Program-made: the position numbers and the translations under genes
Source: an uncultured Pseudomonadales bacterium
GTDB lineage: Bacteria > Patescibacteriota > Microgenomatia > UBA1400 > PJMF01
DNA: 64,000 bases
Assembly: GCA_964637295.1 (NCBI GenBank)
Contig: CAZWWE010000001.1
Span: 121,808 to 185,807, forward strand
Direction: 5' to 3'
Shown here: piece after piece, positions 36,540 through 59,200 of the stretch
How the letters are laid out: every line of letters starts with the position of its first letter
Numbering within the stretch: position 1 is the stretch's first letter
Notes under the pieces: generated by a model
The model's database searches: none
Seen by the model: only the letters and a program-made list of their open reading frames with translations
What the model was told of the DNA's origin: nothing

Positions 36540-37253
36540 ATGATTGCTATGCGCCAAGCATTTCAAATCGCCATTGATGGTCCTGTGGCTGCGGGCAAAG
36601 GTACTGTTTCCAGACTTCTAGCTCAGAAACTAGGTTTTCTTTACGTAGATACTGGAGCCATGTATCGAGCTACCGCTCTGCTCGCTCTAAGAGAAAAAGT
36701 AGATCTTGCCGATGAAGAAAAAGTAGTCAATTTACTAAAAAATAGTAAATTAGAAATGCGTAATCCTCTGGCGCCTAAAGAGCTAGATGGTCGCCTCACT
36801 ACAGTCATTCTTAATGACGAAGACGTTTCTTGGGCTATTCGCACCCAAAAATGTGGCGATGGTTCTTCAAAAGTTGCTTTATTGCCGAAATTAAGACAAG
36901 TCTTGGTGCGCAAACAACAAGAAATTGCTGATCAACAAAACGTAGTCATGGAAGGTCGAGACATCACGTTTAGGGTGTTACCCACCGCTAATTTAAAAAT
37001 TTTTCTCACCGCCGATGTGCAGTCAAGAGCTTTGCGTCGTCATGCTCAATACCTCAATAAAGGTGTGAGCATTTCCCTGGCAGAAGTACAGCAAGAAATC
37101 AAAGAAAGAGATGAAAGAGATATGAAAAGAAACACTGATCCGCTGCAAATTGTCAAAGAAGCTTGGGTTCTAGACACCAGCAATTTAGAAATTCCAGAAG
37201 TAGTAGATTTAATTATCCAAAAAGTCAAAACTCTACAGCAAAAGCAGTCATAA
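36540..37253 (+). CDS. cmk: cytidylate kinase
   Basis: IAIDGPVAAGKGTVSRLLAQKLGFLYVDTGAMYRA matches the Cmk N-terminus. Confidence 0.85.
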   Translation: MIAMRQAFQIAIDGPVAAGKGTVSRLLAQKLGFLYVDTGAMYRATALLALREKVDLADEEKVVNLLKNSKLEMRNPLAPKELDGRLTTVILNDEDVSWAIRTQKCGDGSSKVALLPKLRQVLVRKQQEIADQQNVVMEGRDITFRVLPTANLKIFLTADVQSRALRRHAQYLNKGVSISLAEVQQEIKERDERDMKRNTDPLQIVKEAWVLDTSNLEIPEVVDLIIQKVKTLQQKQS

Positions 37254-37272
37254 ACAAAGCACTCATAATAAA

Positions 37273-37482
37273 ATGAAGAAAAATTATCAAACAGATCCAC
37301 GTTTGCTACAAGATCTTAATCAAAAAACCGCGCAAATTGAAGCCGCTTATTTAGCCAAACAGAGTAAAAAGCGTCAAAGAAAAGTTGAAAAAGAAGAGCT
37401 GAGTCAAAGATGGGTGGCTCCGCTATTATTGCTCATGACTCTCGTCACTGGTTTTTTAGTTTCACTCATTTTTAATCACTAA
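37273..37482 (+). CDS. small hypothetical protein with C-terminal TM helix
   Basis: 69-aa ORF; overlaps the 3' end of the convergent PBP gene by ~20 nt. Confidence 0.25.
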   Translation: MKKNYQTDPRLLQDLNQKTAQIEAAYLAKQSKKRQRKVEKEELSQRWVAPLLLLMTLVTGFLVSLIFNH

Positions 37483-39888
37483 ATTATCAAAAGAATTATC
37501 ACCACAAGCTTGTTTGGGTTCAGTGCCCTTGATAAAAATTTCCTCAGTCACTCGAGGACATTTAGCGCAAGGCAAAGTGCCAGTGGTGGCGCAAATTTTG
37601 ATTTTAATCATGTTTTCAGGTATCAAAAAACGATGAGGTTTTTGATCATCTAAAAGCAAAAGCATAATTTTATTCCAAATTGGTGAAGCCCCAGTTATTC
37701 CAGAGGCAACGTAGCTCATGGGACTATTGTCATTATTGCCCACCCAAGTAGCGACTAAACGATCGGTAGTATAACCAATCGTCCAATTATCTTTCATGCT
37801 ATTGGTGGTCCCCGTTTTAACAGCCACTTGTTGATTAGGAATATTGAGCACAGAAAAAGCCCCAAAAGCAGGCGTGCGTGCTCGATTATCAAGTAAAATA
37901 TCAGTGATCAAATAAGCCGCCTTAGGGCTCAATTCAAGATTTTCATAACAATTACTTGTTTCCAAAGCACATTGATTGCGATAAAGCAGTTCTCCCTTGT
38001 AATTACTGATTTCTAAAAATGGATTAAGGGTAACTGGATAACCAAGATTGGCAAAGGTACTATAAACAGTTGCCAACTCCGTCATTAGTACTTCGCCTGC
38101 ACCCAAAGTTAAAGATAAGCCAAAACGCTTTCTATCTTGCCAAGTCTTGATGCCCAAAGCCTCAGCCTTATCAATTAAATTATTGACGCCCAATTCCGCT
38201 GCTAATTTAACAGCTGGAATATTATAAGAAGAAGCTAAAGCCTCTCTTAGGGTCACGCGCCCATGAAAACGACCGTCATAATTTTTGGGCGCATAAGGTT
38301 TACTGCCAGGAATTTGATAAACCACGGGCGCATCCTCAATGATTGAGGCCGCATTTTTACCTTTTTCAAAAGCTAAGGCATAAGTCAGCGGCTTAATTGA
38401 TGAGCCTGGTTGACGCGGACGAATAGTCACATTAACTTGCCCATCATGCACAAAATCATAGTAATTAGCTCCACCAATCATCGCTAAAATTTCACCAGTT
38501 TTAGGATTGGTCACCAAAGCAGCGCCATTGCTAATTTTAAAATTTTTTAATTTTGCCACCTCCGCTGTTACAATTTCTTGTGCTTGATTTTGTAAATCAA
38601 GATCCAGGGATGTTTTCACTTCTAAACCACCCTTGGCCACCACTTCTTCACCGTATTTTAAAGCTAATAATTTTCTGATATACATCACAAAATGTGGTGC
38701 TTGAATATCAATTTTATCTTGATTAAAAACTAAAATTTCTTGCTTTGCCTGATCAGCTTGTAATTGGCTAATGTAACCGTCTTCAACCATGCGACGCAAA
38801 ACTTCAGCTTGTCTTTCATAGGCTAATTCCGGATTAGCCCCAAAAGGCGTGTAAGTTGAGGGAGCTTGAGGTAAACCCGCTAACAATGCCGCTTCTGCCA
38901 AACTCAAATTCCGAGCCGACTTATTAAAATAACGCCAAGAAGCTTCTTCAATTCCATAAGTTGAACCACCATAAGGCACGGTGTTAAGATACATTTCTAA
39001 AATTTGCTCTTTGCTATAAATACGCTCAGCAATTAAAGATAATAAAAGTTCACGAATTTTACGGCGATAGGTTTTTTCATTACTTAATAAACGATTTTTA
39101 ATTAATTGCTGAGTAATTGTCGAGCCTCCCTGCATCGTTTCACCTGCAAAATTTTTTAAGACTGCTCTAAAAATACCTTTGAAAGAAAATCCCCAGTGCT
39201 TATAAAAATTTTGATCTTCAATAGCGACGGTGGCATCTTTTAGATATTGCGAAACTAAAGGCAAAGCAATCAAAGTCCGGTTTTCATCTTCATAAATCCG
39301 ATAAAGTAAATTACCATTTCGATCCAAAATTCTTGTAGTTAAATTTTGTTCTTTATTAGATAAATCTGTAGGAGAAGGCAAATCTTTGATCGCCAAATCA
39401 TAAAACAAATAAGAGCTGCCTAAAAAAAGTAAAGTTAAAAAAACTGAAGTTAAATAAGAATAAAAAATGGGCTTTTTTTTTGGCCGACCAACTTTACGAT
39501 TTAAATGAAAAAATCTTAAAAGGCGAATTTTAAAAAAAATTAATTGATCATTAAATTTTTTGCTTTTTTTTTGCAAACGTTCTCTAAGCAAAACAAAAAA
39601 ACGCTGCCACTTAATATAAAAAGGCAATTTTTTTCGACCACGACCTTTTTTAATTTTTAGAAATTTTAAAATTAAAATATATTGATAGATCAATTTTTTT
39701 ATTGATTTATCTATTTTTTTAGACAGTTTCAAAAAATAATTTTTTAACCACCTTTTAAGTTTGATCGTAATTGGCAATTTGGGGCGACCACGCTTAATCA
39801 ATTTAGTTGAAGAAACAGCTTCAAAAACAATTTTTTCCTGCTTTAATCTATTTTTTTTAGCTTTTTGCGAATTATTTTTTTGAGCCAC
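37462..39888 (-). CDS. class A penicillin-binding protein (PBP1A type, transglycosylase + transpeptidase) with ~150-aa basic N-terminal tail
   Basis: GT51 motifs (EDQNFYKHWG, GGSTITQQL); transpeptidase domain. The N-terminal cytoplasmic region contains three GRPK/GRGRK repeats. Confidence 0.85.
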   Translation of the reverse strand: MAQKNNSQKAKKNRLKQEKIVFEAVSSTKLIKRGRPKLPITIKLKRWLKNYFLKLSKKIDKSIKKLIYQYILILKFLKIKKGRGRKKLPFYIKWQRFFVLLRERLQKKSKKFNDQLIFFKIRLLRFFHLNRKVGRPKKKPIFYSYLTSVFLTLLFLGSSYLFYDLAIKDLPSPTDLSNKEQNLTTRILDRNGNLLYRIYEDENRTLIALPLVSQYLKDATVAIEDQNFYKHWGFSFKGIFRAVLKNFAGETMQGGSTITQQLIKNRLLSNEKTYRRKIRELLLSLIAERIYSKEQILEMYLNTVPYGGSTYGIEEASWRYFNKSARNLSLAEAALLAGLPQAPSTYTPFGANPELAYERQAEVLRRMVEDGYISQLQADQAKQEILVFNQDKIDIQAPHFVMYIRKLLALKYGEEVVAKGGLEVKTSLDLDLQNQAQEIVTAEVAKLKNFKISNGAALVTNPKTGEILAMIGGANYYDFVHDGQVNVTIRPRQPGSSIKPLTYALAFEKGKNAASIIEDAPVVYQIPGSKPYAPKNYDGRFHGRVTLREALASSYNIPAVKLAAELGVNNLIDKAEALGIKTWQDRKRFGLSLTLGAGEVLMTELATVYSTFANLGYPVTLNPFLEISNYKGELLYRNQCALETSNCYENLELSPKAAYLITDILLDNRARTPAFGAFSVLNIPNQQVAVKTGTTNSMKDNWTIGYTTDRLVATWVGNNDNSPMSYVASGITGASPIWNKIMLLLLDDQKPHRFLIPENMIKIKICATTGTLPCAKCPRVTEEIFIKGTEPKQACGDNSFDNLVIKNE

Positions 39889-39932
39889 AATGGGGCTATT
39901 TTAGCATGTAAAAATGAACAAAAAGCATCAAA

Positions 39933-42140
39933 TTAAATCGGACAAGCACCGCTGTCACATTTGAGATGTTCTAAACTAATATCTTCTAATAATTCATTGT
40001 CTTCATCACTAATTTCATTAATCACTTGCATAAATTGGCCAATGGTCACTGCCTCTTCTGGCTGATATTCATAAGCTGTGACGTCAATCTTGGGCATCAC
40101 ACTACAAGTTTTAATTAATGGTTGATATTTACGAATCATATTAGAAAATTTACGATAGGAAACTTTTTCCGGATCATATTTCAAAGTGTATGAAACCTGA
40201 TTACCCTTATCTTCTGGCAAAGGTTGACCAGCTTCATCAACTCCCACAATCCAATATTTTTCGATCAACATCAGCCACTTATATTGTTCTTCCGGCGTTG
40301 CTTCGCTGGCCGTAATCAGTTTGTCATTCATCCCTAAACTACAAATTTCTGGCTGAGTAGGAAAACCAATGACCGTTGTACCCTGATAACTTTTCAGTTC
40401 TTTACTTGGATAGCCTAATTTCTGATATTTTTTGACCAAGGGATCGTCACTACTAAACTGCACCCAACGAATGTATTCGCGCATCGCAGGTAAATGTGCT
40501 CCTTCAGACAGACTAAAAAGTTTAGAAGTCGTCCCAGCCGGCTTGATAGTAGTGTTAGTGTGCGGCACATTAACTCCAAGTTTTTTGGCATAACTCATAG
40601 ATTCATCTTGAACAGCTCTTTTAAATCTAGCAATAGTCATCCAAAAATCTTTAGTTTTTTCTTCATCGATTAAATCACGAAAGCCATAACCAAAAGCATT
40701 CCAAGCATATTCATGAATACCAGTCATGCCTACTCCAATGCGATTGGTTCTTTTGACTTCACGCGAATACAAGCTGTCCATGTAAGTATTAACTCTCATC
40801 AAAGCACGAGTTGCCACGCGAAAAGCTTCTTCCGCAGCTTCAACATCTGGAGCATGATAAGGCACCACATCAGCAATTACACAGTATCCACCAAGCATAT
40901 TAAGAGTAATTTCACCACAAGGATTGGGAATTTGAGTGTAATATTTCGCTCCAGCATGTCTCGCCACTTCGGCTAACATTTTGACGGTTTTTTTCATCGG
41001 TGCAAATTTTTTACTTTTGGCATAGCGCCCATCTAAATAACCATCAAAACCCTCATCGTTTTGCACTAACTTGTGCTGATTAACCAAACCAGGTTCACCA
41101 GTTTTGTCAAAATAAGAAGCTCGCATAATCGCATCTAAAACCTTAATTGAATGCTGACTACGTTGCTTCCAAAATTTTTCATCCACCGCCACGCTGTTAT
41201 TAGCAGACCATAAAAAACCACCTTTTTTGATCGAAATAAACTCAAAAATATCTGGATCAGTCCAAGTTTTAACGGCAATACGGGCGGCGCGGCGCGCGCC
41301 GCCCACCAAAACACATTCTGATAAATAATGATCAACGTACAAAGCTTGCTTCCAAGGTTTCATTCCCGAACCTTTGATTGTGGCTACTTTTTGAATCGCT
41401 TTGATTAAAGGTCTTGGCCCTGAAGCCGGGCGACCCTGCATACCACCAATAGGCGAGCCTTTAGCTCTCACTTTACTAAAATCTAAAATCAGCGTATCGT
41501 TTTTGAATTTGCGCTCGTAAGCCATTTCTTCGATTTTTTCGACTGCTTGCGCCCAACCTTCTCTCGTATCCGGAATTTCAAACCAGTGGGCATTTTCATA
41601 CTTATGACGAGCTTCACGAGTGCTTTCATCATCACCCCACACAAAATCAGCGTGAGCGTCACTTAAAACACAACGCACGATCGGCATGTAATCCCAATCC
41701 ACCACCATTAAAGCATCGTCATAAGCTCGCCCCACTCCTGAGCCATTTAACAATAAATAAAATAACAAGAATGAAGAAGAAGCCGTACTGCAATTGGTAA
41801 ACACTTCCATGTTGCGTTCCGGCTGACTTTCGTCACCATGCTGTAAATGACGGCCACTCATCAAAAGCGAAGCATTGGCGATGTGTTTGCGCAATAATTC
41901 ATATTCACCCTGACGATCTTTTTTGAATTTTTCTGGTAATAAAGCAGCATTGCCCAAAGCCACGCGATGCGCCACATCTGCCCAAGTTTCTAATTCACCG
42001 TTTTGTTTAGTACGCAAAATAGTGCGCTTAGCTACAGCTTCACCCAAACCTTTGGAAAGTTTACGATCTATGAATTTCATTTTTTTCTTTGGTAGCTGAT
42101 TGTTAGCAATTTTTTGCGCCATCATATGCAAATCTTTCAT
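39933..42140 (-). CDS. nrdJ: class II (adenosylcobalamin-dependent) ribonucleotide reductase, monomeric type
   Basis: 735 aa, NPCGEI active-site motif, C-terminal Cys pair (…CDSGACPI); adjacent nrdR. Confidence 0.8.
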   Translation of the reverse strand: MKDLHMMAQKIANNQLPKKKMKFIDRKLSKGLGEAVAKRTILRTKQNGELETWADVAHRVALGNAALLPEKFKKDRQGEYELLRKHIANASLLMSGRHLQHGDESQPERNMEVFTNCSTASSSFLLFYLLLNGSGVGRAYDDALMVVDWDYMPIVRCVLSDAHADFVWGDDESTREARHKYENAHWFEIPDTREGWAQAVEKIEEMAYERKFKNDTLILDFSKVRAKGSPIGGMQGRPASGPRPLIKAIQKVATIKGSGMKPWKQALYVDHYLSECVLVGGARRAARIAVKTWTDPDIFEFISIKKGGFLWSANNSVAVDEKFWKQRSQHSIKVLDAIMRASYFDKTGEPGLVNQHKLVQNDEGFDGYLDGRYAKSKKFAPMKKTVKMLAEVARHAGAKYYTQIPNPCGEITLNMLGGYCVIADVVPYHAPDVEAAEEAFRVATRALMRVNTYMDSLYSREVKRTNRIGVGMTGIHEYAWNAFGYGFRDLIDEEKTKDFWMTIARFKRAVQDESMSYAKKLGVNVPHTNTTIKPAGTTSKLFSLSEGAHLPAMREYIRWVQFSSDDPLVKKYQKLGYPSKELKSYQGTTVIGFPTQPEICSLGMNDKLITASEATPEEQYKWLMLIEKYWIVGVDEAGQPLPEDKGNQVSYTLKYDPEKVSYRKFSNMIRKYQPLIKTCSVMPKIDVTAYEYQPEEAVTIGQFMQVINEISDEDNELLEDISLEHLKCDSGACPI

Positions 42141-42166
42141 TTTTAATTACTTTATTGATACCAAAA

Positions 42167-42335
42167 ATTAATTTAGTCCTTTAACATAAGACCATTTGTA
42201 GGAGCTGAATCCAAACATCAATAAAAAATCATGTTTATAGACAGCGACTGCAATGAGTGTAGAAGAAGATTGTTAACTTAAATAAGCTAATAATTTTCGT
42301 CTAACGTGTCTTATGTTAAAGGACTAAATTAATTC
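42167..42335. repeat. structured intergenic element family, copy C (perfect 27-bp terminal inverted repeat AATTAATTTAGTCCTTTAACATAAGAC … GTCTTATGTTAAAGGACTAAATTAATT; conserved core)
   Basis: Arms 42167-42193 and 42309-42335. Core GAGTGTAGAAGAAGATTGTTAACTTAAATAAGCTAATAATTTTCGTCTAACGTGTC. It lies between nrdR (overlapping its stop) and nrdJ. Confidence 0.6.
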
Positions 42336-42781
42336 TCTTTTAATTTTTTAATTTCATTTTCAAAGTCGGCTAATTCTCCAAAATCGCGATAAACACTAGC
42401 AAAAAGCAAATAAGAAAGTGGATCTAATTTTTTCAAGCGATTGAGTACTAAATTGCCAATCTCCCAACTCTTAACTTCAAAAACTTCTCTTTGACGCAAT
42501 TTGGCTTCTACATCCTCAATCAATAATTCTATTTGCAACATGCTCACTGGTCTTTTCCAAGTAGCTTTGATCAAGCCTCTTTTAATTTTTTCACGATCAA
42601 AATTTTCCTTAACCCCATCTTTTTTAATAACTTTTAAATCTACTCCTTCTACTTTTTCATAAGTCGTAAAGCGTTTTTTGCAAACTTCGCAAACTCTTCT
42701 GCGTCTGACGCTATCCCCATTATCTGTTTCTCTAGAATCAATGACTGCTGTTTCACTACTTTTACAAAAAGGACACTGCAT
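42329..42781 (-). CDS. nrdR: transcriptional repressor NrdR
   Basis: MQCPFCKSSETAVIDSRETDNG…RRRRVCEVCKKRFTTYE: zinc ribbon plus ATP-cone. Confidence 0.9.
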   Translation of the reverse strand: MQCPFCKSSETAVIDSRETDNGDSVRRRRVCEVCKKRFTTYEKVEGVDLKVIKKDGVKENFDREKIKRGLIKATWKRPVSMLQIELLIEDVEAKLRQREVFEVKSWEIGNLVLNRLKKLDPLSYLLFASVYRDFGELADFENEIKKLKEN

Positions 42782-45335: not shown

Positions 45336-47717
45336 ATGAATCCATTTTTATTGGCAGAAAGAAAAAAAGCCAAAAAACATCGTCGCCAAATCGCTGACAA
45401 AGGCTTTGCTGTCATTGAACAAATTAAAAATCATCGTTTGTATCAATTAATTCTATTGAGCATTGTTTTAATTTTTTTTGGTGTGCTAATTTATTTATAC
45501 AAACAACTACCTTCTCCCAACAATTTGACCGCTAATGAAAATTTTCCCGTCAGTACACAGATTTTTGATCGTCATGGCACCTTGCTTTATGAAATTTATG
45601 GCCAAGAAAATCGTATTCCCATCAAGATTGGCGATTTACCAGATCACGTTTTACAGGCTACAGTGGCCATTGAAGATAAAAAATTCTATTCACATCATGG
45701 CCTAGATTTAAGTGGTTTAATTCGTGCCAGTTTAAAAAATTTCCGCGGTGGTAATTTGCAAGGCGGCTCAACCATTACTCAACAATTGGTCAAAAATGCC
45801 TTATTAAGCAAAGAAAAAACTTTGCAGAGAAAAATCAAGGAAGCCGTGCTGGCCCTCATGACCGAAATTATTTACAGTAAGCAAGAAATTTTAGAAATGT
45901 ACTTAAATTATATTTCTTATGGCGGCACAGCCGTTGGCATTGAAGCTGCGGCTAATAAATATTTTAATAAATCTGCCAAAGATTTAAGTTTAGCTGAAGC
46001 CAGTCTTTTAGCGGGTTTACCTCAAGCTCCAACTATTTATTCACCTTTTGGTTCTAATCCCGAAAAAGGAAAAAATCGCCAAAAAGAAGTTTTGCGTCGC
46101 ATGGTTGAAGATGGTTACATTAGTCAAGCAGAAGCCGATCAAGCCAGTAACGAAATTCTAGCCCTGGCACTTTCTAAAACTGACATCAAGGCTCCACATT
46201 TCGTTTTTTACATCAAAGATTTGCTTTATGCTAAATATGGTGAAAAAACTGTTGAAACAGGAGGTTTGCGGGTCACCACTACGCTTGATTTAAGCTTGCA
46301 AGAAACCGCTCAAGCATCTTTATCAGGCGAGCTGAAAAAACTCAGTCATTTAAAAGTGGGTAACGGCGCAGCCTTAGTAAGCAAACCAAATACTGGCGAA
46401 ATTTTAGCGATGATTGGCTCTAAAGACTACTTTGATAATGAAGCCGACGGTCAAGTTAACGTCACTTTGTCTCTCAGACAACCGGGCTCTTCCATTAAAC
46501 CAATTATGTACGCCACTGCCTTTGCGAAAAAAACTCTCAATCCCGGCACGATGCTTTTAGATATCCCCACCTGTTTTCGCGTTGCTGGACAAAAAGATTA
46601 CTGTCCCAAAAATTACACTGGCGCATTCATGGGCCCAGTCACTATTCGTCAGGCTTTGGGCAACTCACTGAATATCCCTGCTGTCAAAGCTTTAGCCACG
46701 ATTGGCATTGAGACTTTCATTAAACAAGCTCAACTGATGGGCATCAATACTTGGACTGATCCGGCTAATTATGGCCTATCTTTAACTCTGGGAGGGGGCG
46801 AAGTTAAAATGATTGAGCTAGCAGAAGCTTTTGGTGTCTTAGCTAATCAGGGCGTACGTTTGCCTCTGACTGGAATTTTAGAAATCAGCAATTATAAGGG
46901 CGAAGTTTTGGAAAAATATGATCCTGAACAAGCTCGAGCTGACGTCGCCTTCTTAACTGAAAATGAGTTAGTGTTGGAACAAAATCAAGCCAAAAGAGTG
47001 ATGGAACGTGCACCAGCCTACTTGACCAATCATATTATGCAAGATAATAATGCTCGAGTTAACGCTTTTGGCTCAAATTCAAAGTTAGTCATCAAAAATA
47101 AAATTGTTTCTGCCAAAACTGGCACCACCAATGATCTCAAAGATAACTGGACAGTCGGCTACACTCCAGATTATCTGACTATTGTCTGGGTAGGTAATAA
47201 TAATAGTCAATCTATGAGTTATTTAGCTTCTGGTATTACTGGTGCGGCTCCAATTTGGCATGATATTATGACTTGGATTTTACAAGATCAAGAAGTGAGC
47301 TGGATAGAAAAACCAAACGATGTCAAAATTGCCAATCTTTGTTTAACGGGCATGCCAGCAAAAGCTGGTCTTGGAACTTTATTAATTAATGACCCCAATC
47401 ATCAAGATAAAAATTTAAGTCTAACTAATACTGATACTGATCCGATTGCCAGTTGTGAAAGCAAGGGCCAAGAATTATATTGGGAAAACTCCAAACCAAG
47501 CTATGCAGGGACTTTTCGCAAAGCATATTGGATTCGCAGTAGCACTGGCTTGCCGCCCAAAGAAGGTGAGGAAGCAACTGATTTGCAACTTGAAGAACAT
47601 AGCTTTTTTTATGATCCTTTAACCAAACTTTATTGTGCTGATTGTAACCGCCCCACTGACGAAACTGGCAAAATTATTTATGAAGCACAAATCGTTGATG
47701 TCAAAAATATTTTTTAG
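45336..47717 (+). CDS. class A penicillin-binding protein (second PBP1A-type paralogue)
   Basis: EDKKFYSHHG, GGSTITQQL, transpeptidase SxxK/SxN/KTG region. Confidence 0.85.
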   Translation: MNPFLLAERKKAKKHRRQIADKGFAVIEQIKNHRLYQLILLSIVLIFFGVLIYLYKQLPSPNNLTANENFPVSTQIFDRHGTLLYEIYGQENRIPIKIGDLPDHVLQATVAIEDKKFYSHHGLDLSGLIRASLKNFRGGNLQGGSTITQQLVKNALLSKEKTLQRKIKEAVLALMTEIIYSKQEILEMYLNYISYGGTAVGIEAAANKYFNKSAKDLSLAEASLLAGLPQAPTIYSPFGSNPEKGKNRQKEVLRRMVEDGYISQAEADQASNEILALALSKTDIKAPHFVFYIKDLLYAKYGEKTVETGGLRVTTTLDLSLQETAQASLSGELKKLSHLKVGNGAALVSKPNTGEILAMIGSKDYFDNEADGQVNVTLSLRQPGSSIKPIMYATAFAKKTLNPGTMLLDIPTCFRVAGQKDYCPKNYTGAFMGPVTIRQALGNSLNIPAVKALATIGIETFIKQAQLMGINTWTDPANYGLSLTLGGGEVKMIELAEAFGVLANQGVRLPLTGILEISNYKGEVLEKYDPEQARADVAFLTENELVLEQNQAKRVMERAPAYLTNHIMQDNNARVNAFGSNSKLVIKNKIVSAKTGTTNDLKDNWTVGYTPDYLTIVWVGNNNSQSMSYLASGITGAAPIWHDIMTWILQDQEVSWIEKPNDVKIANLCLTGMPAKAGLGTLLINDPNHQDKNLSLTNTDTDPIASCESKGQELYWENSKPSYAGTFRKAYWIRSSTGLPPKEGEEATDLQLEEHSFFYDPLTKLYCADCNRPTDETGKIIYEAQIVDVKNIF

Positions 47718-48921
47718 TCTTTTTTTATTTTTATTGCTAATTTTTATTATTTTATTTTCCATTAATATTTTTTACGAAATGCCTTTGTCCTCAGCGATTA
47801 ATAATGATAGCCGCTTGCGTTATCTTAAAGAATTAATTATTCCTAAAAAAGATAAAAAAGTAGTTTACGGTTTTTTACCCTATTGGAATCTTCGGGAAAC
47901 AAAGATCGAAAAAGAATTGACTCATCTAGCTTATTTCGGCTTAAATATTCAAGCCAATGGTGAAATTATGATTAAAAATGCCGATGGCAGTCTTGATCCT
48001 GGCTATCGAAACATGAATGAAGACATATTTTTAGAGTTAGCTACACAAATGCAAGCACAAAATGGCCAAGTGGAGCTGGTGCTCAAACAATTTGATGCTG
48101 ATGAAATCAGAGCTTTTTTAACTAATGAAAAAGCTCATCTTAAATTCTTGCAAAGCTTAGATTCCTTGCTCTTGGCTTATCCCATTGGCGGTATTAATAT
48201 TGACATCGAATATGCGGGCGAAAATAGTCAAGACTTACGCGAACATTTCCTCACCTTTTTACGCAAATTAGATTGGTATTTAGATAGTAAATATCCAAAC
48301 ATTTCACTCAGCATTGATGTTTATGCCAGTGCCGCGAGCAATCAGCAAAGCATTTGGGATCTGGAAAAACTTAGCCAATACCTTGATTACGTGATTGTCA
48401 TGGCTTACGATTTTCACCAAAGAAGCAGCGAACAGGCTGGGCCAGTCGCACCGTTGTTTAGTGAAAGCAACTCCTGGAACAAAGATATTAATCAACATCT
48501 AAAACAATTTTTTACTTTAATTCCGAGAGAAAAGATTTTATTGGGCATTCCTTTTTATGGTTATGGCTGGCGCACTGATTCTAATCAACCCAAAGCCAAT
48601 ACTTATCAAGATACAGGTTTTACTGTCAGTTATAAAAAAGCCAAAGAACTACTCAATTTAGCCGCTGGACAGCAACAAGAAGACAGCAGTTGGCCTGGAG
48701 CAAGTAAGATTCAATCAGGTTTTGATGAAAACGCCCTTTCTCCATATTTAAGTTACCAACAAGATGGAGAGCAATACCTAATTTATTACGAAGATCCGAT
48801 TTCAATCGCTTATAAGCTCGAATATGCTCGTCAACTAAATCTGGCGGGAATTGCCATTTGGGCACTGGGCTACGAAGATGCTGACGGCACCCTCTGGCAA
48901 GCGATCAAAAACGGCATCTAA
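47698..48921 (+). CDS. GH18 family glycoside hydrolase (chitinase-like), membrane-anchored
   Basis: YGFLPYWN, GINIDIEY catalytic D-x-E motif, LLGIPFYGYGW. Likely ATG MSKIFF overlaps the PBP stop. The track ORF begins earlier at 47635. Confidence 0.6.
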   Translation: MSKIFFSLFLFLLLIFIILFSINIFYEMPLSSAINNDSRLRYLKELIIPKKDKKVVYGFLPYWNLRETKIEKELTHLAYFGLNIQANGEIMIKNADGSLDPGYRNMNEDIFLELATQMQAQNGQVELVLKQFDADEIRAFLTNEKAHLKFLQSLDSLLLAYPIGGINIDIEYAGENSQDLREHFLTFLRKLDWYLDSKYPNISLSIDVYASAASNQQSIWDLEKLSQYLDYVIVMAYDFHQRSSEQAGPVAPLFSESNSWNKDINQHLKQFFTLIPREKILLGIPFYGYGWRTDSNQPKANTYQDTGFTVSYKKAKELLNLAAGQQQEDSSWPGASKIQSGFDENALSPYLSYQQDGEQYLIYYEDPISIAYKLEYARQLNLAGIAIWALGYEDADGTLWQAIKNGI

Positions 48922-49732: not shown

Positions 49733-50263
49733 ATGTGGAAAAAGAAAAGCTGGCCAAAATTTAATTTATTTCAAAAAATTTTTGCTAATCAAAAAATCGC
49801 CTTGTTGATCAGTTCTTTGGACAAATTCTTTATTAAATTACCTCACTTGCCTAAAAAACTCAGGCTACTGATCAGCCGTTTTGTGCCTTTCTTAGCCTTG
49901 ATTTTCGGTTTAATTGGCCTAGTAGCGAGCATATTGGCTGGTTCTTTTGTCGTTCTGGGCTTGCTCGCCGGCGAATGGGGCTTTTTAGCTGAAAATGCCT
50001 TCAACTTTGGGATAACTTTGCTAAGCGCCCTCCTGCTACTAAAATCTTTCAAACCGCTGCGGGCGGGCAACGCTGTGGGTTGGATTTATCTTTTTTGGTC
50101 AGAAATTTTGGAAGTCATCAACTTGATCGTGCGCACCATCAATCAAGAAAGTGGTTTGATTTGGAATTTAGTCATAATCATCTTGAGTTTTTACTGCTTA
50201 TTTGAAATTGGACAATTCTACGTGTATAAGAAAGAGAAGGAAAAAGGATTAAATACAATTTGA
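49733..50263 (+). CDS. hypothetical membrane protein (3-4 TM)
   Basis: 176-aa ORF convergent with and overlapping the 3' end of the giant gene. Confidence 0.35.
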   Translation: MWKKKSWPKFNLFQKIFANQKIALLISSLDKFFIKLPHLPKKLRLLISRFVPFLALIFGLIGLVASILAGSFVVLGLLAGEWGFLAENAFNFGITLLSALLLLKSFKPLRAGNAVGWIYLFWSEILEVINLIVRTINQESGLIWNLVIIILSFYCLFEIGQFYVYKKEKEKGLNTI

Positions 50264-53200
50264 TTCTTAAGTTTTTCATATAAAGAATTTAGAAGTATTT
50301 CTTCATCATTTAAGTTATCACTATTTGTTTCAAATGATTCTAGACCAAAAACATCTAGTCCAATACTTTCTAAAAAGCTCTTACCATCATAGATTGTTTT
50401 TTCTGTGCCGTTTATATAGTCACTTAGATGATCATTTCCTATTCTTAACAACATTCTGTTTATAGCAGCCATGTTTTTTACAAATAATCTCATATTCAAA
50501 GGAAATTCTAGCTTAAGTCTATCTGTTTCTTGCATCATGGCATTAAAAAATGAAATTTGTGAATTACTATCTGTATCGCGTTTGATTAGCTTTTCTTTAA
50601 GAGCAACTCTTAAATACGAAGCGTAGGCTTTCCAATAATTAAATAGTCCACTTTTTCTAACTTGATTACTGTTTAATAGATATCTTGTCAAATTAACAAA
50701 TTTATGAAAATCAGTTTCTTGATTAGACAAGAGAATTTTTATTAAATCAACTTCTTCTTGAGAAAGAACTAAATAATAACTTCTGTCGATAACTGAAACA
50801 TTGGATAAGGCTTCATCGGCCATAATATTTCCAATATGCAAATCAGAGTGCAAAATATAAGCTGTTTTACCATCTGCCAAGGTAACAGGGTAATTGAGAT
50901 GTTTGACATAATCGGTAACGATATCAGAAATCAATTCTTCAATACGCTTCGCTCTCTCATTATCCTGATTATTCACATGATGGTTTTCGCTAATTAATTC
51001 ATTTTCAAAATTTGCAATTAGATTTTTTAAAGTATCGCCCTCAACATAATCTTCAATTTTAATCCAACGGTTATAAATTTCGTGCTTGTTTGAAGTATTG
51101 AAAGTAAAACCAAACCTCGATTGATGTGGATATAATTGATTAAACAGGATGTCATTCGAGATAAAATTTTTATCTTGTATGTCTTCAGTATTCCATTGCT
51201 CTAGAGTATTAATTAATCTTTGAACAACTTCGTAATTTTTCTTATTACTTTTATCTAACTTCTGCAAATCATTGACAACTGACTCCACTAAAGTTCTCGT
51301 TTCTGCTACATCTATAATCACATTGGGATTACTGATTTTAAGAACTTTCATAGTTATCTCATCGTTCGTTGGATTGAGAATTTCCACTAGATAAGTTGTA
51401 TTAATTGATCCACCTCCAATTTTTTTAATGATTCTGATATTGGGTAATAATTCTTTGAGCTGCTTTGCTTGCGCCAAATTATAATCAATTTCTTCTTGAG
51501 AAGCTGCATTAGCTGGATTTTGTAAGGAATCAATGGCTGTTTCTGCACTTTGAAATAAATTCGCCATATATAAATTTGAGGCATTATCATAAACACTTAA
51601 AAATTCTTGCTGCAACTCTTTTGGTAAATCAAAATATTGACCAAATACTTGCAAAAACCGCACTCCCAAGCTGCCCAAGCTTTTAGCCAATTCAACAATG
51701 AATTGACCGGTCTGAATCTTACCGTTATTGCTTAAGTTTTGAATTGGCTCTCTTTTAATACCAAACTTTTTTAAACTTCTAAGAGCAATATTCTCAAATT
51801 GAGCGTTGAGATCAAAGACAAACTGATAATTACTGTTTTTGTTTATAACAATATTTTTATCTTGATTGAATAAATTTGTTAGCATTTTTCTAACTTTTTC
51901 TCGATAGTCCTCTGCAACGTCTGATGGCAAATTTTCACTGATTATTGTTTCAACTGCATAATTATTACTGACCGCTCTAGGATTTCCCTGCAAAAAACTA
52001 TCAGCTAGGGCTCTAGAAATACCCAATTCAATGCGCGTTGAACCTTCAACCTGGGATAAAGTTGAGCTAATAATATTTTTTAAAAGAGGTTTTAAATTTA
52101 ATTCTTCAGAATCTTCAAGCTGATCAGTTAAAAATGTAGCTATTTTGAGATGATTATCCTCATTCAATAGTAATTTTTCAGATAGCAATTTGGCAATAAA
52201 AGCTGTTTTTTCTAATTTTGATAAATTATAGAAACTCGCCACAAATTCCTCAAAAGTTGGAAAAGACGTTAATCCTGGACCAGACAAGTTGCCATTTTCA
52301 TCAACAAAAACGCTTGTTTTTTTGTGAATTAAGTAACTCGCTATTATAGAAAAAGCTTGCAAACTGCCGGAGTCTCTATCATAAGTTAATAGCGATGAAT
52401 AATATTTTGCTAAATAGTATTTAACTTTTTCGTGATCTCCTTTTATTGAGGCTTCAAAAAATCCGAGTAAATCTGTCTCATTCATATTAGTAATATAGTT
52501 TGAAACTAGAGTATCAACAGCAACTGTTCTGTCTAAACTCTTTTGCTCCGACCCCAAACTTTGATTTAAACTCTGATCTTCAGAAATAATTTTATATTCC
52601 TCAAAAGTTTTGACATGACTTTCTAAGAAAAAATGTATGTATTGATTATGTCCATTTTCTAAAGATTGTTTGAGAAAATCATACGCCTCATTAAAAGGTA
52701 ACTCTTGAAAGAGCTTAATCGCAATTTCTTCAAGAATTTGATTTTTAGTTTGCAATGAAGGGAAATTTTTTTCAAGAAAATTATACAAATCAACTCCTTG
52801 TAAATTTTTGGATTTTTCTTCAACAAACTTTAATTCATAGCTGATCAAGGGTTTTAATAAATTTGCTTCAACTTCATTGGTTCCAAAATAATATTCTTCA
52901 CCAGCTGTTCGATCTATGGCCGAAGCATAACGTCCGTTAGCTAATTCAAAAAACCATCTTAATTGAGTCGATACAGAAAAATTTATTGTTTCAGGAGCAA
53001 AATGAATACCTGGTCGAAAACCACTAATGTCTTGATTGATATCAGAAATATTTAAAGTGTTTAAATAGTTTTGCAATTCTTGGATGATCGTAAAATTACT
53101 AAACAAAGAAAAATTTTTATTAGACAATGGAGTATTTTTGCAAGCTTCTCTGATTTCATCAAAATATTCAGCTAAAATCTGCCATTCTTTGTCGTAAATT

Positions 53201-56200
53201 AGACTTTTTAGATAATCTAGGTACTGATCCTGAAGTTGCCTGTTTAGATCCAAAAAGGCTTGATCTATATTCGTTTGATCATCGAAATCCGACAACAAAA
53301 ACGAGTTCTTAAAAAAAGTAAGAATAAAATGTTGAGCCAAGATAAAACTATTGGATTCAATGTCTGCTTCACCTGAAAAAATTTGTTTAAAATTATTTTC
53401 ATTTAAAGCGAACTTAACTAATAAATTATTTAAAAAAACTCGATCTTCTAATTCTAGAAAGCTATGATTTAAGAAATCACTTAGTGTATCAACATCAAAT
53501 CTTGTGACTGGTTTATTTTTTGTAAAAATTGTTAATATTTTTTGATTAAATTCTTGAATTTTTATCTCTTGCTCTGGTTGATTAAGCTTAGAAACTCCTT
53601 TATAAGCAGAGAGGTCAATGTAGGTGTCAGTATCGTCATTTCTTTTTTCATTAAGATCGAGTTTCTTTTTAATATAATTAAAATATTCTTCTCTTTTTTT
53701 TAATTCACTATATTTAAAATTATTATTCGAATATTCTAAAATTTGATCTTTAGACCAATTTGGGTTTTGTAGCATTAAATTTATCAATCTGTCCAAATAT
53801 GGTTCTGGATCTAAATCATTTAATCGAATTTCGCTTATCAAGCGATCTTGAAGATCAAGAGATAATGAGTACAAGTGATAGCTTATTGAATGTGCATAAG
53901 CTTGCTTGCCCAGATTTAGACCGCCTGCGAACTGAATAATTAATGGAAATTCTTTTTCTACATCATCGAACAAATCGGATATAGTTTTCCTCAGATTTTT
54001 ATTTTTTAAAAACTCTCTGCGACTTGATAATTGAAAATCAAGAATTGATTGTGGCTTCAAGACTAAATCCGGCTTATTCTTTTCAAGAAGACTTGACCAA
54101 GGATCTTTATTTAACAGTTCCTCATAATATTGGCTATTTAAGTCGGCGTCACTTGGTTTTAGTTTGTTAACTAGATTTCTAGTTTTAAAAAATAATGGCG
54201 AGATAGAAAAATATAATTTGTCATAATCAAAGAGAAAATTAAAATGGAATGCTTCAAAAAAAAGATCTACATGATTATATAAATCGCCAAATCTATCTGT
54301 AGAACTATAGGAAGAAATCCAAAGCAATTTTATCCCTTTGAGTTGATCAGTGTTTACATGAAGATCTCTAAGTAAGTAATCGAATTTTTTGAACTCTTGA
54401 TCAATTATTTCAAGAGTTTGCTGAAATAGAATTGTATTGTAAAGCTTTTGCCAAAAACCAATACTCTTTTTCGATGAATTGTTTATATAATCTTTAGTAT
54501 TACTGACTCTTTTTCTAAAATCAGGAACAAAATTTTCGTAGTATTGTTTTTTAATGCTTGGATTGGCAGCAGAATACAGCCCTTCCCAAACTGCATTTTT
54601 TTTCGAATTGCTTAATTCATAGATAAAACCAAAATTAGTAGCTTTCTTCCACGAAAAAGGCATTGCGGTCGGTCTAATATTTTCTGCAATACCTAATTCT
54701 TGAAAATTAAAGGCTACTTCTAAATTTATGTTTCTATTAAATAAAGAGCCATGATCTAAATCAGAAATTATTTTGAATTTACTCATATTAAAGAGCTGAA
54801 CACCTCTATTACCCCAAAAAGATTTTTTGGCGGTTCTATTATCCGAATAACTACCAATAATTTCTGCGGCTCCCTGAAATGCTTTTGGTTGATACCCTAA
54901 TCTGCCCAACCTGAGCAAAGATGTTCTATCAGCTTTGTATTCTTGTGCTCTACCACTAGTTAATTCAGATAGCATGTCGTTCCAATTCAAAAAATTATCC
55001 TCAAAGTGAGAAAATTCATGAACTAAAATGGCAAACAATTGATCTTTAGTTTCTAATGCATTAATTAAGCCCTGATTAACAACTAAAGAACCATCAGGCA
55101 AAGCAAAAGCATTTAATCCTTGATTAAGAGATACATAAACCTTTGCCTTTGGCAAAGGTTCTTTACCAGCTTCTGCTCTTTCTTGATTAATTAAGTCTGC
55201 TAATTGGTCGACAAAGGTTTGGATATCTCTTACCATTTCATCATCTGTGCTTAAAAATCGAGTGTTGTAATGCTCAGCATTTAAAATATTCCTAATTTCC
55301 TCTAAAACTTCTTCTTTACTTCTCTGCCAATTTCCTTGTATGTGATCAGTGCTATTCAAAGCTATTTCTTGAGAAAGGGGAATTAAATTCATTTTTTTAT
55401 CTAAATCTAACACTGATGTAATGTATGAATTTAATTTTGAGTTTCTTTCTTCTTGATTAAAGTTTTGAGTAAAACCACGCTTTAGCAAAACACTAGCATC
55501 TGTTTTTAATATTCTAGCTTGATCAAAAAAAGTAAAAAATGAAAATCGTCTGCTAATTACATTCTTTATTCCCTGTAATACTCCGCCAATAAGTTTATTG
55601 CGGTTTAGTTTGCCAGCCTTTTCTTCAAATTCAGCCATTTGCTTGAGACCAACAATTGCTGCTGCTTGATTACCTTCTAGAAGATCATTAACATCAGAGA
55701 TTTCTTGCGGAGTCAAATTGAGAGTTTCTGTTTGACGACCAATGCTTAAAAAGCCGGGTTTAGTTACTATGGTCATTTGTTTACTTGCTAGAATTTGCTT
55801 CGCAATGAGAGTGGCTTGATAGACAGAAGTGATGGCACGAGTTGTATCTGCTTTAGTTTGTCTAATCTCTGCTTCTTTAGTATCGACCCAAGCATTGAGG
55901 TAAAGCTGAACACACTGGTTTTGCATACCGTGTGAATTGACCACTTGAAGCCTGGTATCACTGAGTTGTTTAAGGGCTGCTTGTTTCTTATCTGCTGCTT
56001 GCTGAGTAAGAGTTTGCGCTTGCTTCAGATCCCCAGCAGTTTCAGCCTCACCAACTTGCACAAGCAGAGCTTCTGCTTCTTGCATCAGGGCATTCGCCTT
56101 TTCTACTCCAGCTTGGGTATCTAAGCGCACTTGATTGCAATCGGAGCAGAGGGAGGAAAAATCGAGTAAATTTGATTCAGGGCTATCTGTTTGCAAAGAT

Positions 56201-59200
56201 TGATATTCAACATTGATGGAATTAAGGGCTGATCTAAATCTGTTCTCAGTTTCAGTAAAAGAAGGATTGTCAGTTAAATTTACTTCAATAAGGTGATTGA
56301 GCAAATAATCTTTATACCTAATTTCTAACAATATCTTTTTCTTTAATTCTTGAAATTTCAATAAATCAACAGTTTGGATTCCTGCTTCGTTTAAAATTAT
56401 TGGCAAAGATAAATCTTGTCCAGTGAAATAACTAAAATTACCCATTTCATTTTCAAATAATTGACTCAATAAATCGTTAAGCTCTTGTTGATATTCATTT
56501 ATTTCCTTATCAAAAGAAAATTTAGCGGCAGTCTTTTTAAAAGCAATAGAAAAAATTATTTTGCGTAAATCCTGCGAAGATGTAATTTCTGGAGGCAAAT
56601 CATTTTTATAAATTCTAAACAACATTTCTAATTCATGTTTCAAATTTTCAATATCTGAGTCTCTAATTTCAGAAACTGCTGAGTTTTTGACATAATCAAT
56701 AAAGATTTTATTTTGAGAAGACAGATGACTAATGATTTTCTTTAAAACTATTGCGACATCCTGCCATTTTTTTGGCTGACCAGGTATTGATTTTGCTACT
56801 TCTATATAAATACTTAATTCATCAATAGCACTGAACGCTTGTAGCAAATTAATGCTACTGGGTAAATCCTTTTCCATTTGTAATTGAGGAATTACTTTAT
56901 CAAAATCATTCAAATTGATAACTAATTTTTCATCTTTATCAACCTCTAATGCAAGTAGGGTGTTAAAAAAAGGAGCTCTCTGCTGCAATCTTCTTTGTAA
57001 TTCAGCGAATACATCTTTAAATAAAAGAGTGGCAAAATCTGATGGAGTATCGTGAATAATTCTTAGAAATTCAGTTGAACCATATTTTGCTTCAATTTTT
57101 TCTCCTAAAACCATGCCTAAGGCATAGGGTCTTAAATATGAGAGATTAATTGAGGCAGCTCTATTTACATAGTTACTAAAAATTGAAAAATCTATAGCAC
57201 CAATCAATTGATTGCTTTGGCCTTGTTTTTTCAGGCCGTTAGAAAATGTTTGGAGAAACCTCGCGCTTGCTCTTTCTCCTCCCATTTCTCCAATAAAAGT
57301 TGATAAATTTCTTTCTGTTTCGTAAGTAAAATGGTCATTTTCCTTCAATATTTGAGTTAAACTAGATATTGAATCAGAATCAAATCTGGAACTGTCAAAA
57401 ATATAATCCAAAACTTCATTAGTGTTTTGTTCTGTTCGTCTAGGCTTGGCAAGCCTATCAACTGCATGATCAACTTCATGAGTAATTGTCGTAATGCAAT
57501 CAAACAAAGACCTGCGATTTAGCTTGTTATTAATAAAAATGGGATGTAAGGTATCATTATCTTTTATTGGCTGAGCATATGCATTGGCAGACTCTTCAAA
57601 AACACTACTAATAATTGGAACGGTTACTTCTTTGCCATTTTTTTTGATTAAGATAGTCGCAATTGGCAAATCTCGACTTAAAGATAAAAATCTTGACAGC
57701 TGTTGTTCATCGGTTAAAATGGTGGCAATATCAGCTATTTGTTGATCACTTAGTCTTTCAACAGAAATTCTAATGATTTCTACCGATTCTTGATAAATTT
57801 CTTTAAAATATTCTTCTAAACTGGCAGCCGCTCCGGCTTGATTGAAAAAGATTTTTGCTTGCGGATCTAATAGTTTATTTATTAAAACCTGTTGCAATTC
57901 AATAGAAACATCCTGTTTTTTAATAGAATCCATTAAATTGGAAATTGCATATTGTATATCTGGATATAAAGATTTAGCACGAAAGATAAATTCTCGCTCG
58001 ATGAAATAAGGTAGGGAAGAAATTTTTTTCGCATTAATTTCATACGAACCATCTGTTAAAATCGTTGCTAAACCTGCTTTAACTAATGAATCAAGATAAT
58101 TTTTTGCAAAATCTAAATTAGAAGAAGTGTCATTAGTTATTAAATCTAAAAGTTGTTTCGGAGATCTGATTTTTTCCTCCGTCTGATCAAATAATTGATC
58201 CGCTTCTCCAACACCTAAATCAGAAACAAGTTGATCTTCTTGGCTTAATTCCTCAAAATTAAGCCAAATATTAATCATTGTTTCTTTTACACTACTAACG
58301 GTTGCTTGCCCCAATTTGATTCCAAATAAATTGCTTTTTAATTCTTTTTCTTCTGTAGAAAAATACATTTGAGCCAATTCTGAAGTACCAATAACTGGAT
58401 TTTTCCCATCTTCTCTGCTGGTGGCTGTTAACAACAGCAATAATCTAATTACTTCAGATTTATAATTAACTGTAATATGTTCACTTAAAAGTTCTTGAAG
58501 TAGCTCTTGTTCGCTCAATCCTTCGTGCTTAACAGTTAGTGCTAGTAATTGAGCAGTTCCTTCATTGAGATAATGATGAAAAACAACGCGATTCGTATTT
58601 TCATATTCGAATCCGCCAAGAGCTAGGGTTTTAATTAATTCTGATGTAACAATGAAATTAACATCTAATTGAGCTGCCTTTTTTTTGTTAATTAAAATTT
58701 CGGTATGTTCAAGAAAATCCAATCTGACATAGCCAAAACTATTAAATTGCTCATTAAGAGCACTGGAAAAAGATTCAATACTATTTTCGTCTTCGATACC
58801 TTTTTCTACTAACCAAGTTAATATTTTATGCGATAGTTGTTGTGAATTTGCCAAGACCGCCTTAGATTTACTTGCTCGCATAATTCCTTCATCTGAAGCA
58901 GAAAACTTATCAAGTAAAACAGATCTGATTTCATCAATCTCAATTATTTCTAGATTTTCGTCCTCATCGGAGTTAACATTCTGACTCAAATTTTCTTCAA
59001 GAATAGGATCAATTTTTTGAGCGTTGACACTTTGAGAGTTTTCAATATGCCTAGCAATTTGCTCTAATTCCTCTAGAGTTAAGGTTTCTAAAGGATCAGC
59101 AATTAACAAGGCTTGACCAGAATTTGTTTGCCATTCACCAATCACATTAATCAACTCAGTTTTGCGTTGTTTTTCAGCAACAAGTCTAGCCGATTCGTGC

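Follow-up and report, generated by a model that had tools for sequence, protein, structure and literature searches.

Few bacterial enzymes are as well studied as class A penicillin-binding proteins (PBPs), the cytoplasmic ends of which are mostly regarded as short anchors; the cytoplasmic N-terminus of Escherichia coli PBP1B has about 60 amino acids (aa). Bacterial DNA binders of the AT-hook type include Myxococcus CarD, with RGRP repeats, and WhiB7. A DNA-to-membrane tether is found in Noc of Bacillus subtilis, a peripheral protein of the ParB family that uses sequence-specific sites. PonA1 of Mycobacterium tuberculosis and M. smegmatis is a class A PBP with a long cytoplasmic tail (PMC4483258). 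HMGA1 has three AT-hooks with the consensus RGRP that bind the AATT minor groove; the RGR of AT-hooks and AT-hook-like motifs enters the minor groove, and mutation of RGR to AGA abolishes binding (PMC8476142). AT-hook-like DNA binders of bacteria are Lsr2 (SGRGR) and Bv3F/H-NS (RGR/QGR) (PMC8476142). Here, a class A PBP gene was analyzed in a stretch of 64,000 nucleotides (nt; hereafter, the window) from an uncultured Pseudomonadales bacterium (GTDB lineage Bacteria; Patescibacteriota; Microgenomatia; UBA1400; PJMF01; assembly GCA_964637295.1, contig CAZWWE010000001.1, positions 121,808 to 185,807). Its product carries a long basic cytoplasmic tail with three AT-hook-type motifs, referred to below as hooks 1 to 3 (Table 1).

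Like PonA1, the protein is a bitopic synthase with GT51 and transpeptidase domains and an unusually long N-terminal cytoplasmic extension, which by analogy may be regulatory and not needed for catalysis. Unlike the PonA1 tail, which is described as unconserved and acting via Ser/Thr phosphorylation (PMC4483258), the tail here is conserved, polycationic, internally duplicated, and equipped with three AT-hook-type motifs. With HMGA1 and other AT-hook proteins (PF02178) it shares three R-G-R-P-type hooks flanked by K/R, invariant core Arg, Gly, and Pro, and the predicted placement of the hooks in non-helical segments; such proteins are also what a profile of the tail finds, and Arg-rich orthologues pass the Pfam model. 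HMGA proteins are, however, small, soluble, and disordered, with an acidic C-terminal tail, whereas the tail here is poor in acidic residues, is fused to a membrane enzyme, has hooks spaced by fixed-length, basic, hydrophobic predicted helices, and in the window has two hooks (2 and 3) that depart from RGRP and fail the Pfam model. The hooks also resemble the prokaryotic RGR(P) loop type used by Lsr2, Bv3F, and CarD for AT-rich minor-groove binding, and the host genome here is AT-rich; hook 2 (KGRGRKK) is similar to the SGRGR loop of Lsr2. In contrast to the tailed PBP, Lsr2, H-NS, CarD, and WhiB7 are soluble nucleoid or transcription proteins, none of them a membrane enzyme, and the loop of Lsr2 and H-NS forms part of a folded domain. 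The likeness to Noc is one of analogy only, in that a chromosome-membrane linkage through a DNA-binding part and an amphipathic or membrane part is proposed; unlike Noc, the candidate here is an integral membrane synthase, and its AT-hook-type motifs are generic.

The gene encodes an intact bifunctional peptidoglycan synthase, and a protein of the searched collection (P0001) is 100% identical to its 808-aa product. Pfam PF00912 and PF00905 were both matched, and the score for NCBIfam PBP_1a_fam (TIGR02074), 509.4 bits, was barely above the cut-off of 508.75. The motifs by which GT51 of a class A PBP is recognized (E-D..F..H.G, GGSTITQQ, and RK..E) are present. Their residues E224-D225, the GGSTITQQ stretch G254-Q261, and R276-K277..E280 were invariant across 65 aligned full-length orthologues that share 56-83% identity with the window protein, as were SxxK (S496-S-I-K499), SxN (S554-Y-N556), and KTG (K691-T-G693) of the transpeptidase domain. 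The nearest solved relatives by sequence were PBP1A and PBP1B structures (phmmer to PBP1A 4oon, E-value 1.9e-81), and the nearest fold by Foldseek was E. coli PBP1b 5hlb (E 2.5e-35, TM-score 0.60-0.65). In a hydropathy scan, no transmembrane (TM) helix above the threshold was found in the tail besides the single anchor that follows it. The N-terminus is placed inside the cell because of the charge of the tail (+42) and because the catalytic domains must be extracytoplasmic. Six extracytoplasmic Cys residues (C640, C647, C766, C774, C777, and C795), four of them in the last ~45 residues, were also invariant in the 65 orthologues, and suggest a disulfide-bonded or metal-binding C-terminal module in the PBP.

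The tail consists of 33.6% K+R and 3.6% D+E, in comparison with 11% and 10.6% in the remainder of the protein, and about 39% of its residues are hydrophobic. Its coding DNA has a guanine-cytosine (GC) content of 25%; the probability of 141 open codons was ~8e-7, and the other five frames had 7-16 stops. The frame opens at the same position in 12 orthologous loci from Patescibacteria of the Candidatus Pacebacteria type. The ratio of nonsynonymous to synonymous divergence (dN/dS, Nei-Gojobori) was 0.23-0.59 in the tail and 0.05-0.14 in the catalytic part, these figures being rough because dS is near saturation. Codons for the invariant Arg, Gly, and Pro residues of the tail vary synonymously (e.g., CGT/CGC/CGA/CGG/AGA and CCC/CCA/CCT/CCG), and therefore selection acts on the protein. 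No Rfam family was found at E<=1 over positions 37000-40300, and an RNA-element explanation was therefore dropped. Judged from these sequence data, the extension is a real, translated, lineage-conserved N-terminal cytoplasmic part of the synthase, and its anatomy and translation as described here are regarded as almost certain. In most close pairs, the tail had a lower proportion of synonymous differences (pS) than the catalytic part (e.g., 0.45-0.48 vs 0.61-0.70), which may come from the narrow codon choice of a Lys-rich segment with 25% GC, or from an extra constraint at the nucleotide level.

An in-frame TAA lies five codons 5' of the GTG start and is held within TGCTAAAAT, an element resembling an extended -10 promoter motif. 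In the window and in 12 of 12 orthologous loci (L001-L008, L010, L012, L024, and L047), a sequence of the form TG[CT]TA[AG]AAT, i.e., the extended -10 consensus, ends 9-10 nt before the start codon; the form in L012 is GGGTAAAAT. The start codon is ATG in 10 of these loci and GTG, as in the window, in the other two (L002 and L024), with a stop a few codons upstream. Between the element and the start codon, no Shine-Dalgarno sequence was found in the window or in the orthologous loci. The element was seen only when orthologous upstream DNA was aligned; a generic sigma-70 (-35/-10) scan gave no promoter in the 44-nt gap between nrdJ and the PBP gene. We infer that the PBP mRNA is leaderless or has a leader of 2-3 nt and is transcribed from its own promoter in this gap. 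After the start codon, the tail has no ATG or GTG codon. In-frame TTG codons are found in it only at codons 30, 38, 53, 66, 88, 100, and 105, and the next one (161) is within the TM helix, so any anchored product would retain at least hook 3.

Several of these points had been raised in an earlier note on this DNA, made from the sequence alone. Its assignment of the gene to class A PBPs, its description of the tail as Lys/Arg-rich and cytoplasmic, and its argument that the open frame speaks for translation all stand. The tail is indeed long, but has ~140 aa before the TM helix instead of the 150 aa that were claimed. The note proposed that tail conservation be checked in orthologues, and conservation was found at the protein level; orthologues do not start at the TM helix. 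It had also named an alternative start near 39440, and since no start codon occurs near that position, this start does not exist. The functions that it suggested for the tail, tethering to the nucleoid, to RNA, or to acidic membrane components, are candidate roles.

The hook peptides are KRGRPKLPITIKLKRW (aa 32-47), KKGRGRKKLPFYIKWQRF (aa 80-97), and RKVGRPKKKPIFYSY (aa 131-145). The full RGRP core is found only in hook 1; hook 2 has RGR without the proline, and hook 3 has (V)GRP. Basic residues flank the core on both sides in all three. Shuffles of the tail that keep its composition had on average 0.005 motifs in comparison with the three observed, and none of 200,000 shuffles reached three. 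The motif was present only at these three places in six-frame open reading frames (ORFs) of the window, and in no other ORF of Patescibacteria among ~312,000 aa of ORFs from 79 related loci and the window.

In the 65 orthologues, the sole invariant columns of the tail are R33-G34-R35-P36, G84-R85, and G134-R135-P136. R83 (61/65) and K138 are conserved in more than 90%, position 86 of hook 2 is P in 21, and position 133 of hook 3 is V in 47 and R in 10. Flanking positions are K/R in most orthologues and exchange the two freely (K48/R7, K51/R11, and K35/R17), whereas the core Arg is never Lys. This pattern indicates selection on the identity of the core Arg-Gly-Arg(-Pro), beyond charge alone. 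Arg invariance with K/R-tolerant flanks is what a minor-groove mechanism predicts, and is compatible with such a mechanism without being proof of it. The spacing between hooks is ~50 aa and nearly free of indels, even at ~20% tail identity; in one subclade (P0041-P0059-type), an insertion of 40-50 aa separates hook 3 from the TM helix. A conserved L-P-phi-x-phi-[KR]-phi (phi, hydrophobic residue) comes after each hook, its place in the third unit being taken by the TM helix itself. The three peptides quoted in the earlier note are exact in the translation, and its threefold basic repeat with an R-G-R-P or G-R-P core of the AT-hook type is a true one. Its description of the repeats as three GRPK motifs applies to hooks 1 and 3 and fails for hook 2 (G-R-G-R-K-K).

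The likeness to AT-hooks was assessed with the Pfam AT_hook model (PF02178; 13 residues, gathering score 17.4 bits) and with a profile of the tail. AT_hook was the most frequent Pfam family among the orthologous tails, with E<=0.1 in seven of 37 (best 9.9e-6), and the tail of orthologue P0078 scored 22.6 bits, above the gathering score. The matching tails have more Arg-rich hooks, aligned column for column with those of the window. Human HMGA1, used as a control (sequence entered by hand), scored 16.2 bits, under the gathering score, which shows that the model is weak. When 1.84 billion representative proteins were searched exhaustively with the tail profile (HMMER, E<=1e-3), only 17 matches were obtained. 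Five were N-terminal fragments bearing the same tail; among the other 12 are all the full-length ones inspected, which were repetitive, eukaryote-type proteins with multiple AT-hooks (KRGRPKK type) matched via the hook columns, and five of eight scanned passed the Pfam model. At the sensitivity of this search, no other bacterial protein family with the hook-helix module was found. Against PDB sequences, the tail profile gave no significant match (E>2; ribosomal L35/uL29 and designed helical bundles), and in the PDB searches no solved structure or sequence resembled the tail.

The tail is organized in repeated units. The profiles of unit 1 (aa 29-79) and unit 2 (aa 79-130) match over their whole length (hhalign: probability 97%, E 2e-10), which identifies the tail as an ancient tandem duplication of a ~50-aa unit. 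The layout is a basic G-R-P loop, L-P-phi-x-phi-[KR]-phi-x-R, and a long helix that ends in phi-L-[KH/G]-phi. Tandem Repeats Finder detected no ~150-nt repeat in the DNA, and the duplication is visible only at the profile level. In AlphaFold2 (AF2) models, the two long helices had confidence scores (pLDDT) of ~80 in the full-length model and ~98 in the tail-only model; all three hook cores were in loops between helices, with pLDDT below 50 and of 63-84, respectively. The hydrophobic moment of helix 40-76 was 0.71, a value attained by 1.1% of shuffles, and the amphipathicity of helix 90-126 was not above that of shuffles. As modelled, the tail is not disordered in the manner of HMGA, and from profiles and models together it is not a plain low-complexity string, being made of two duplicated ~50-aa units of a hook and a predicted helix.

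The best 120 of the thousands of relatives in the collection (58-100% identity) are almost all 770-1000 aa in length, and are therefore long-tailed too. Among 117 full-length close homologues, at least three hooks were found in 70, one or two in 13, and none in 34; tail length had a median of 146 aa (range 54-324). The view that class A PBPs normally have a short cytoplasmic N-terminus, taken in the earlier note, therefore needs qualification: long tails have a precedent in PonA1 (PMC4483258) and are the rule in this orthologous group. The gene order nrdR-nrdJ-PBP, convergent with orf69-cmk-LiaF-like-smpB, is kept across the hook-bearing clade. Its downstream half persists in L013-L018, the PBPs of which have long, K/R-rich tails without hooks, so the hooks are an elaboration within an older lineage with long basic tails. 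The window also encodes a second class A PBP, which from the TM helix on is 50% identical to the tailed one and has an ordinary cytoplasmic end of ~37 aa without hooks; further PBP paralogues in related genomes are also short-tailed. The tail was therefore added to one paralogue and does not reflect a general compositional bias of the genome.

Extensions of a different kind (100-190 aa) were observed in PBP homologues of the Gottesman-, Roizman-, and Levybacteria type (L028, L033, L035, L037, L038, L042, L044, L046, and L048). They contain truly hydrophobic segments, possibly additional TM helices, and basic repeats punctuated by proline, e.g., (I/L)PK(I/V)-x-x-P. A tailed PBP with 79% identity and the synteny of the Pacebacteria loci was found in L002/L070 (CP011212.1, titled 'candidate division TM6 bacterium GW2011_GWF2_28_16'); the title of this record may not match its true affiliation.

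For the function of the tail, the reading favored here is that of a trivalent module binding a polyanion, for which the RGR(P) cores would make AT-rich DNA the likeliest ligand (GC content of the window, ~37%). The three hooks would place Arg-Gly-Arg in the narrow minor groove of such DNA, as the hooks of HMGA, Lsr2, and Bv3F do, and the basic helices would touch the DNA backbone, lie on the anionic inner leaflet, or both. In a very small cell, the tailed paralogue could in this way be tethered to the nucleoid periphery, its position or mobility being coupled to the chromosome, while the short-tailed paralogue would remain untethered. Multivalent binding of AT-rich DNA is put forward tentatively, as a function that the motifs make quite possible; that the tail is a true trivalent AT-hook module which makes the PBP an integral-membrane nucleoid tether is doubtful.

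A number of observations weigh against this reading. The window tail and its three isolated hooks matched neither Pfam AT_hook nor any other Pfam family at E<=10. Hook 2 lacks the Pro and hook 3 the first Arg; after hooks 1 and 2 comes the hydrophobic L-P-phi-x-phi instead of basic residues. Hydrophobic residues account for ~39% of the tail. The spacers between hooks are long predicted helices, unlike the disordered spacers of the HMGA type, and the one strongly amphipathic helix would suit binding to a membrane surface at least as well. Because 34 of the 117 homologues, including the positional orthologues L013-L018, have tails that are long and basic but hookless, a general polycationic character may be ancestral and sufficient. 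The hook-bearing loci have a lower GC content (36.7% vs 42.2%), a difference that is confounded by phylogeny and is not relied on.

Of the other explanations, an anchor on the membrane surface survives best, and is an unlikely though serious candidate. Cationic amphipathic helices would lie on the anionic inner leaflet, with the G-R-P turns as helix-breaking hinges with snorkelling Arg, and the tail would determine the topology of the synthase, its lateral mobility, or its preference for lipid domains, with no role for nucleic acid. The high positive charge together with the share of hydrophobic residues agrees with this, as do the hydrophobic moment of helix 40-76, the conserved L-P-phi-x-phi-[KR]-phi after each hook, replaced by the TM helix in the third unit, and the truly hydrophobic N-terminal extensions of related Microgenomates PBPs. 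However, charge-based lipid binding would accept Lys, yet the core Arg is invariant amid neighbors that swap K and R, and helix 90-126 is no more amphipathic than shuffles. The hooks of Arg-rich orthologues are, moreover, textbook AT-hooks that pass the Pfam model, and hook 3 is 40-50 aa away from the TM anchor in one subclade.

The tail may instead dock a protein, by analogy with PonA1, its repeated short linear motif serving as the binding site of a partner in the cytoplasm (e.g., a scaffold of the divisome or elongasome, or a kinase) through which the activity or placement of the synthase is tuned. Phosphorylation or deletion of the PonA1 tail alters the elongation rate (PMC4483258), short invariant motifs with constant spacing are a usual sign of repeated docking sites, and only one of the two paralogues carries the tail. 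No partner is indicated, however, the conserved neighbors being nrdR, nrdJ, cmk, and smpB and not division genes; the tail profile had no significant match among PDB chains, and the extreme charge points to a polyanionic ligand over a folded protein surface. Docking is considered decidedly unlikely.

Binding of RNA or ribosomes has a lower probability still and is thought improbable. Here, the basic helices and RG/RGR loops would hold rRNA or mRNA, e.g., translating ribosomes or transcripts at the membrane. Extended AT-hooks and RG-rich motifs are said to bind RNA, and the composition and helicity of the tail are like those of ribosomal-protein extensions, its sole faint PDB matches being eukaryotic ribosomal L35/uL29 (E ~2-4, not significant). 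Apart from these non-significant matches, nothing RNA-specific was found, and the Pro-containing core RGRP is of the DNA minor-groove type. Finally, that the extension is an annotation artefact, with the true start near the TM helix and an untranslated frame upstream, is essentially excluded: the GTG start without a Shine-Dalgarno sequence would allow it, but the absence from the tail of ATG and GTG, and of TTG after codon 105, the improbable open frame, the conservation of frame, start, and motifs (12 loci, 65+ proteins), a dN/dS of less than 1, and the synonymous variation stand against it.

The genes around the PBP were recorded as well (Table 1). Directly upstream, in the same orientation, are nrdR and a B12-dependent class II ribonucleotide reductase (RNR); the order nrdR-RNR-PBP is kept in all hook-bearing loci in which the upstream flank is present, and the RNR is 82-95% identical. 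A convergent ORF of 69 aa, the product of which has a hydrophobic segment at the C-terminus, shares 21 nt with the 3' end of the PBP gene. This ORF matched no Pfam family and is kept in most orthologous loci, with 56-72% identity in close ones and ~44-47% in P0041-P0059-type loci. The second PBP is followed by a GH18 glycosyl hydrolase gene that overlaps its 3' end. A giant ORF of 4587 aa has FHA, calcineurin-like phosphoesterase, and M48 peptidase domains amid otherwise unassigned sequence.

Table 1. Positions of the tailed PBP gene, its parts, and neighboring features in the window
Feature	Positions	Strand	Remarks
Class A PBP gene, stop codon included	37462..39888	-	808 aa, GTG start at 39888
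Cytoplasmic tail, aa 1-140	39469..39888	-	Composition, conservation, dN/dS
Hook 1, KRGRPK, aa 32-37	39778..39795	-	Canonical R-G-R-P core; predicted loop
Predicted helix, aa 40-76	39661..39771	-	Cationic, amphipathic; AF2
Hook 2, KKGRGRKK, aa 80-87	39628..39651	-	R-G-R core, without Pro in this clade
Predicted helix, aa 90-126	39511..39621	-	Basic with hydrophobic face; AF2
Hook 3, RKVGRPKKK, aa 131-139	39472..39498	-	G-R-P core, Val for first Arg; abuts TM helix
Single TM anchor, aa 141-165	39394..39468	-	Sole segment with TM-level hydropathy; AF2 helix 141-167
GT51 transglycosylase domain, aa 192-367	38788..39315	-	Pfam PF00912 (Transgly), E 2.8e-62
Transpeptidase domain, aa 455-742	37663..38526	-	Pfam PF00905, E 5.9e-23
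Extended -10-like element TGCTAAAAT	39898..39906	-	Ends 9 nt 5' of GTG start
Invariant-Cys regions of PBP	37504-37593 and 37948-37971	-	
69-aa ORF	37273-37482	+	
nrdR and class II RNR	39933-42781	-	
Second class A PBP	45336..47717	+	793 aa
GH18 glycosyl hydrolase gene	47635-48921		
Giant ORF	50218-63981	-	4587 aa

Long-tailed class A PBPs and bacterial AT-hook-like motifs are already known; their fusion and the duplicated hook-helix unit were not described in the literature searched. Literature searches on AT-hook with PBP, Patescibacteria, or peptidoglycan and transmembrane returned nothing relevant, and in databases the tailed PBP and its relatives have generic PBP names in which the tail is unmentioned.

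A whole clade of Patescibacteria has thus fixed a large, duplicated cytoplasmic module with AT-hook-type motifs on one PBP paralogue, and the conserved putative promoter of the leaderless type fixes the true start of these genes. If the hooks bind DNA, they would provide a direct link between the chromosome and wall synthesis at the level of the enzyme, and a rare prokaryotic case of multivalent AT-hooks on a membrane protein. Should the nucleoid tether be real, it may serve, e.g., as a minimal aid to nucleoid occlusion, positioning, or segregation in ultra-small cells of Patescibacteria. If the tail binds lipid or protein instead, it would still be a conserved regulatory appendage, relevant to annotating and expressing PBPs of the candidate phyla radiation (CPR). 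The tail offers a testable handle on how envelope growth and the nucleoid are coordinated in ultra-small cells with reduced genomes.

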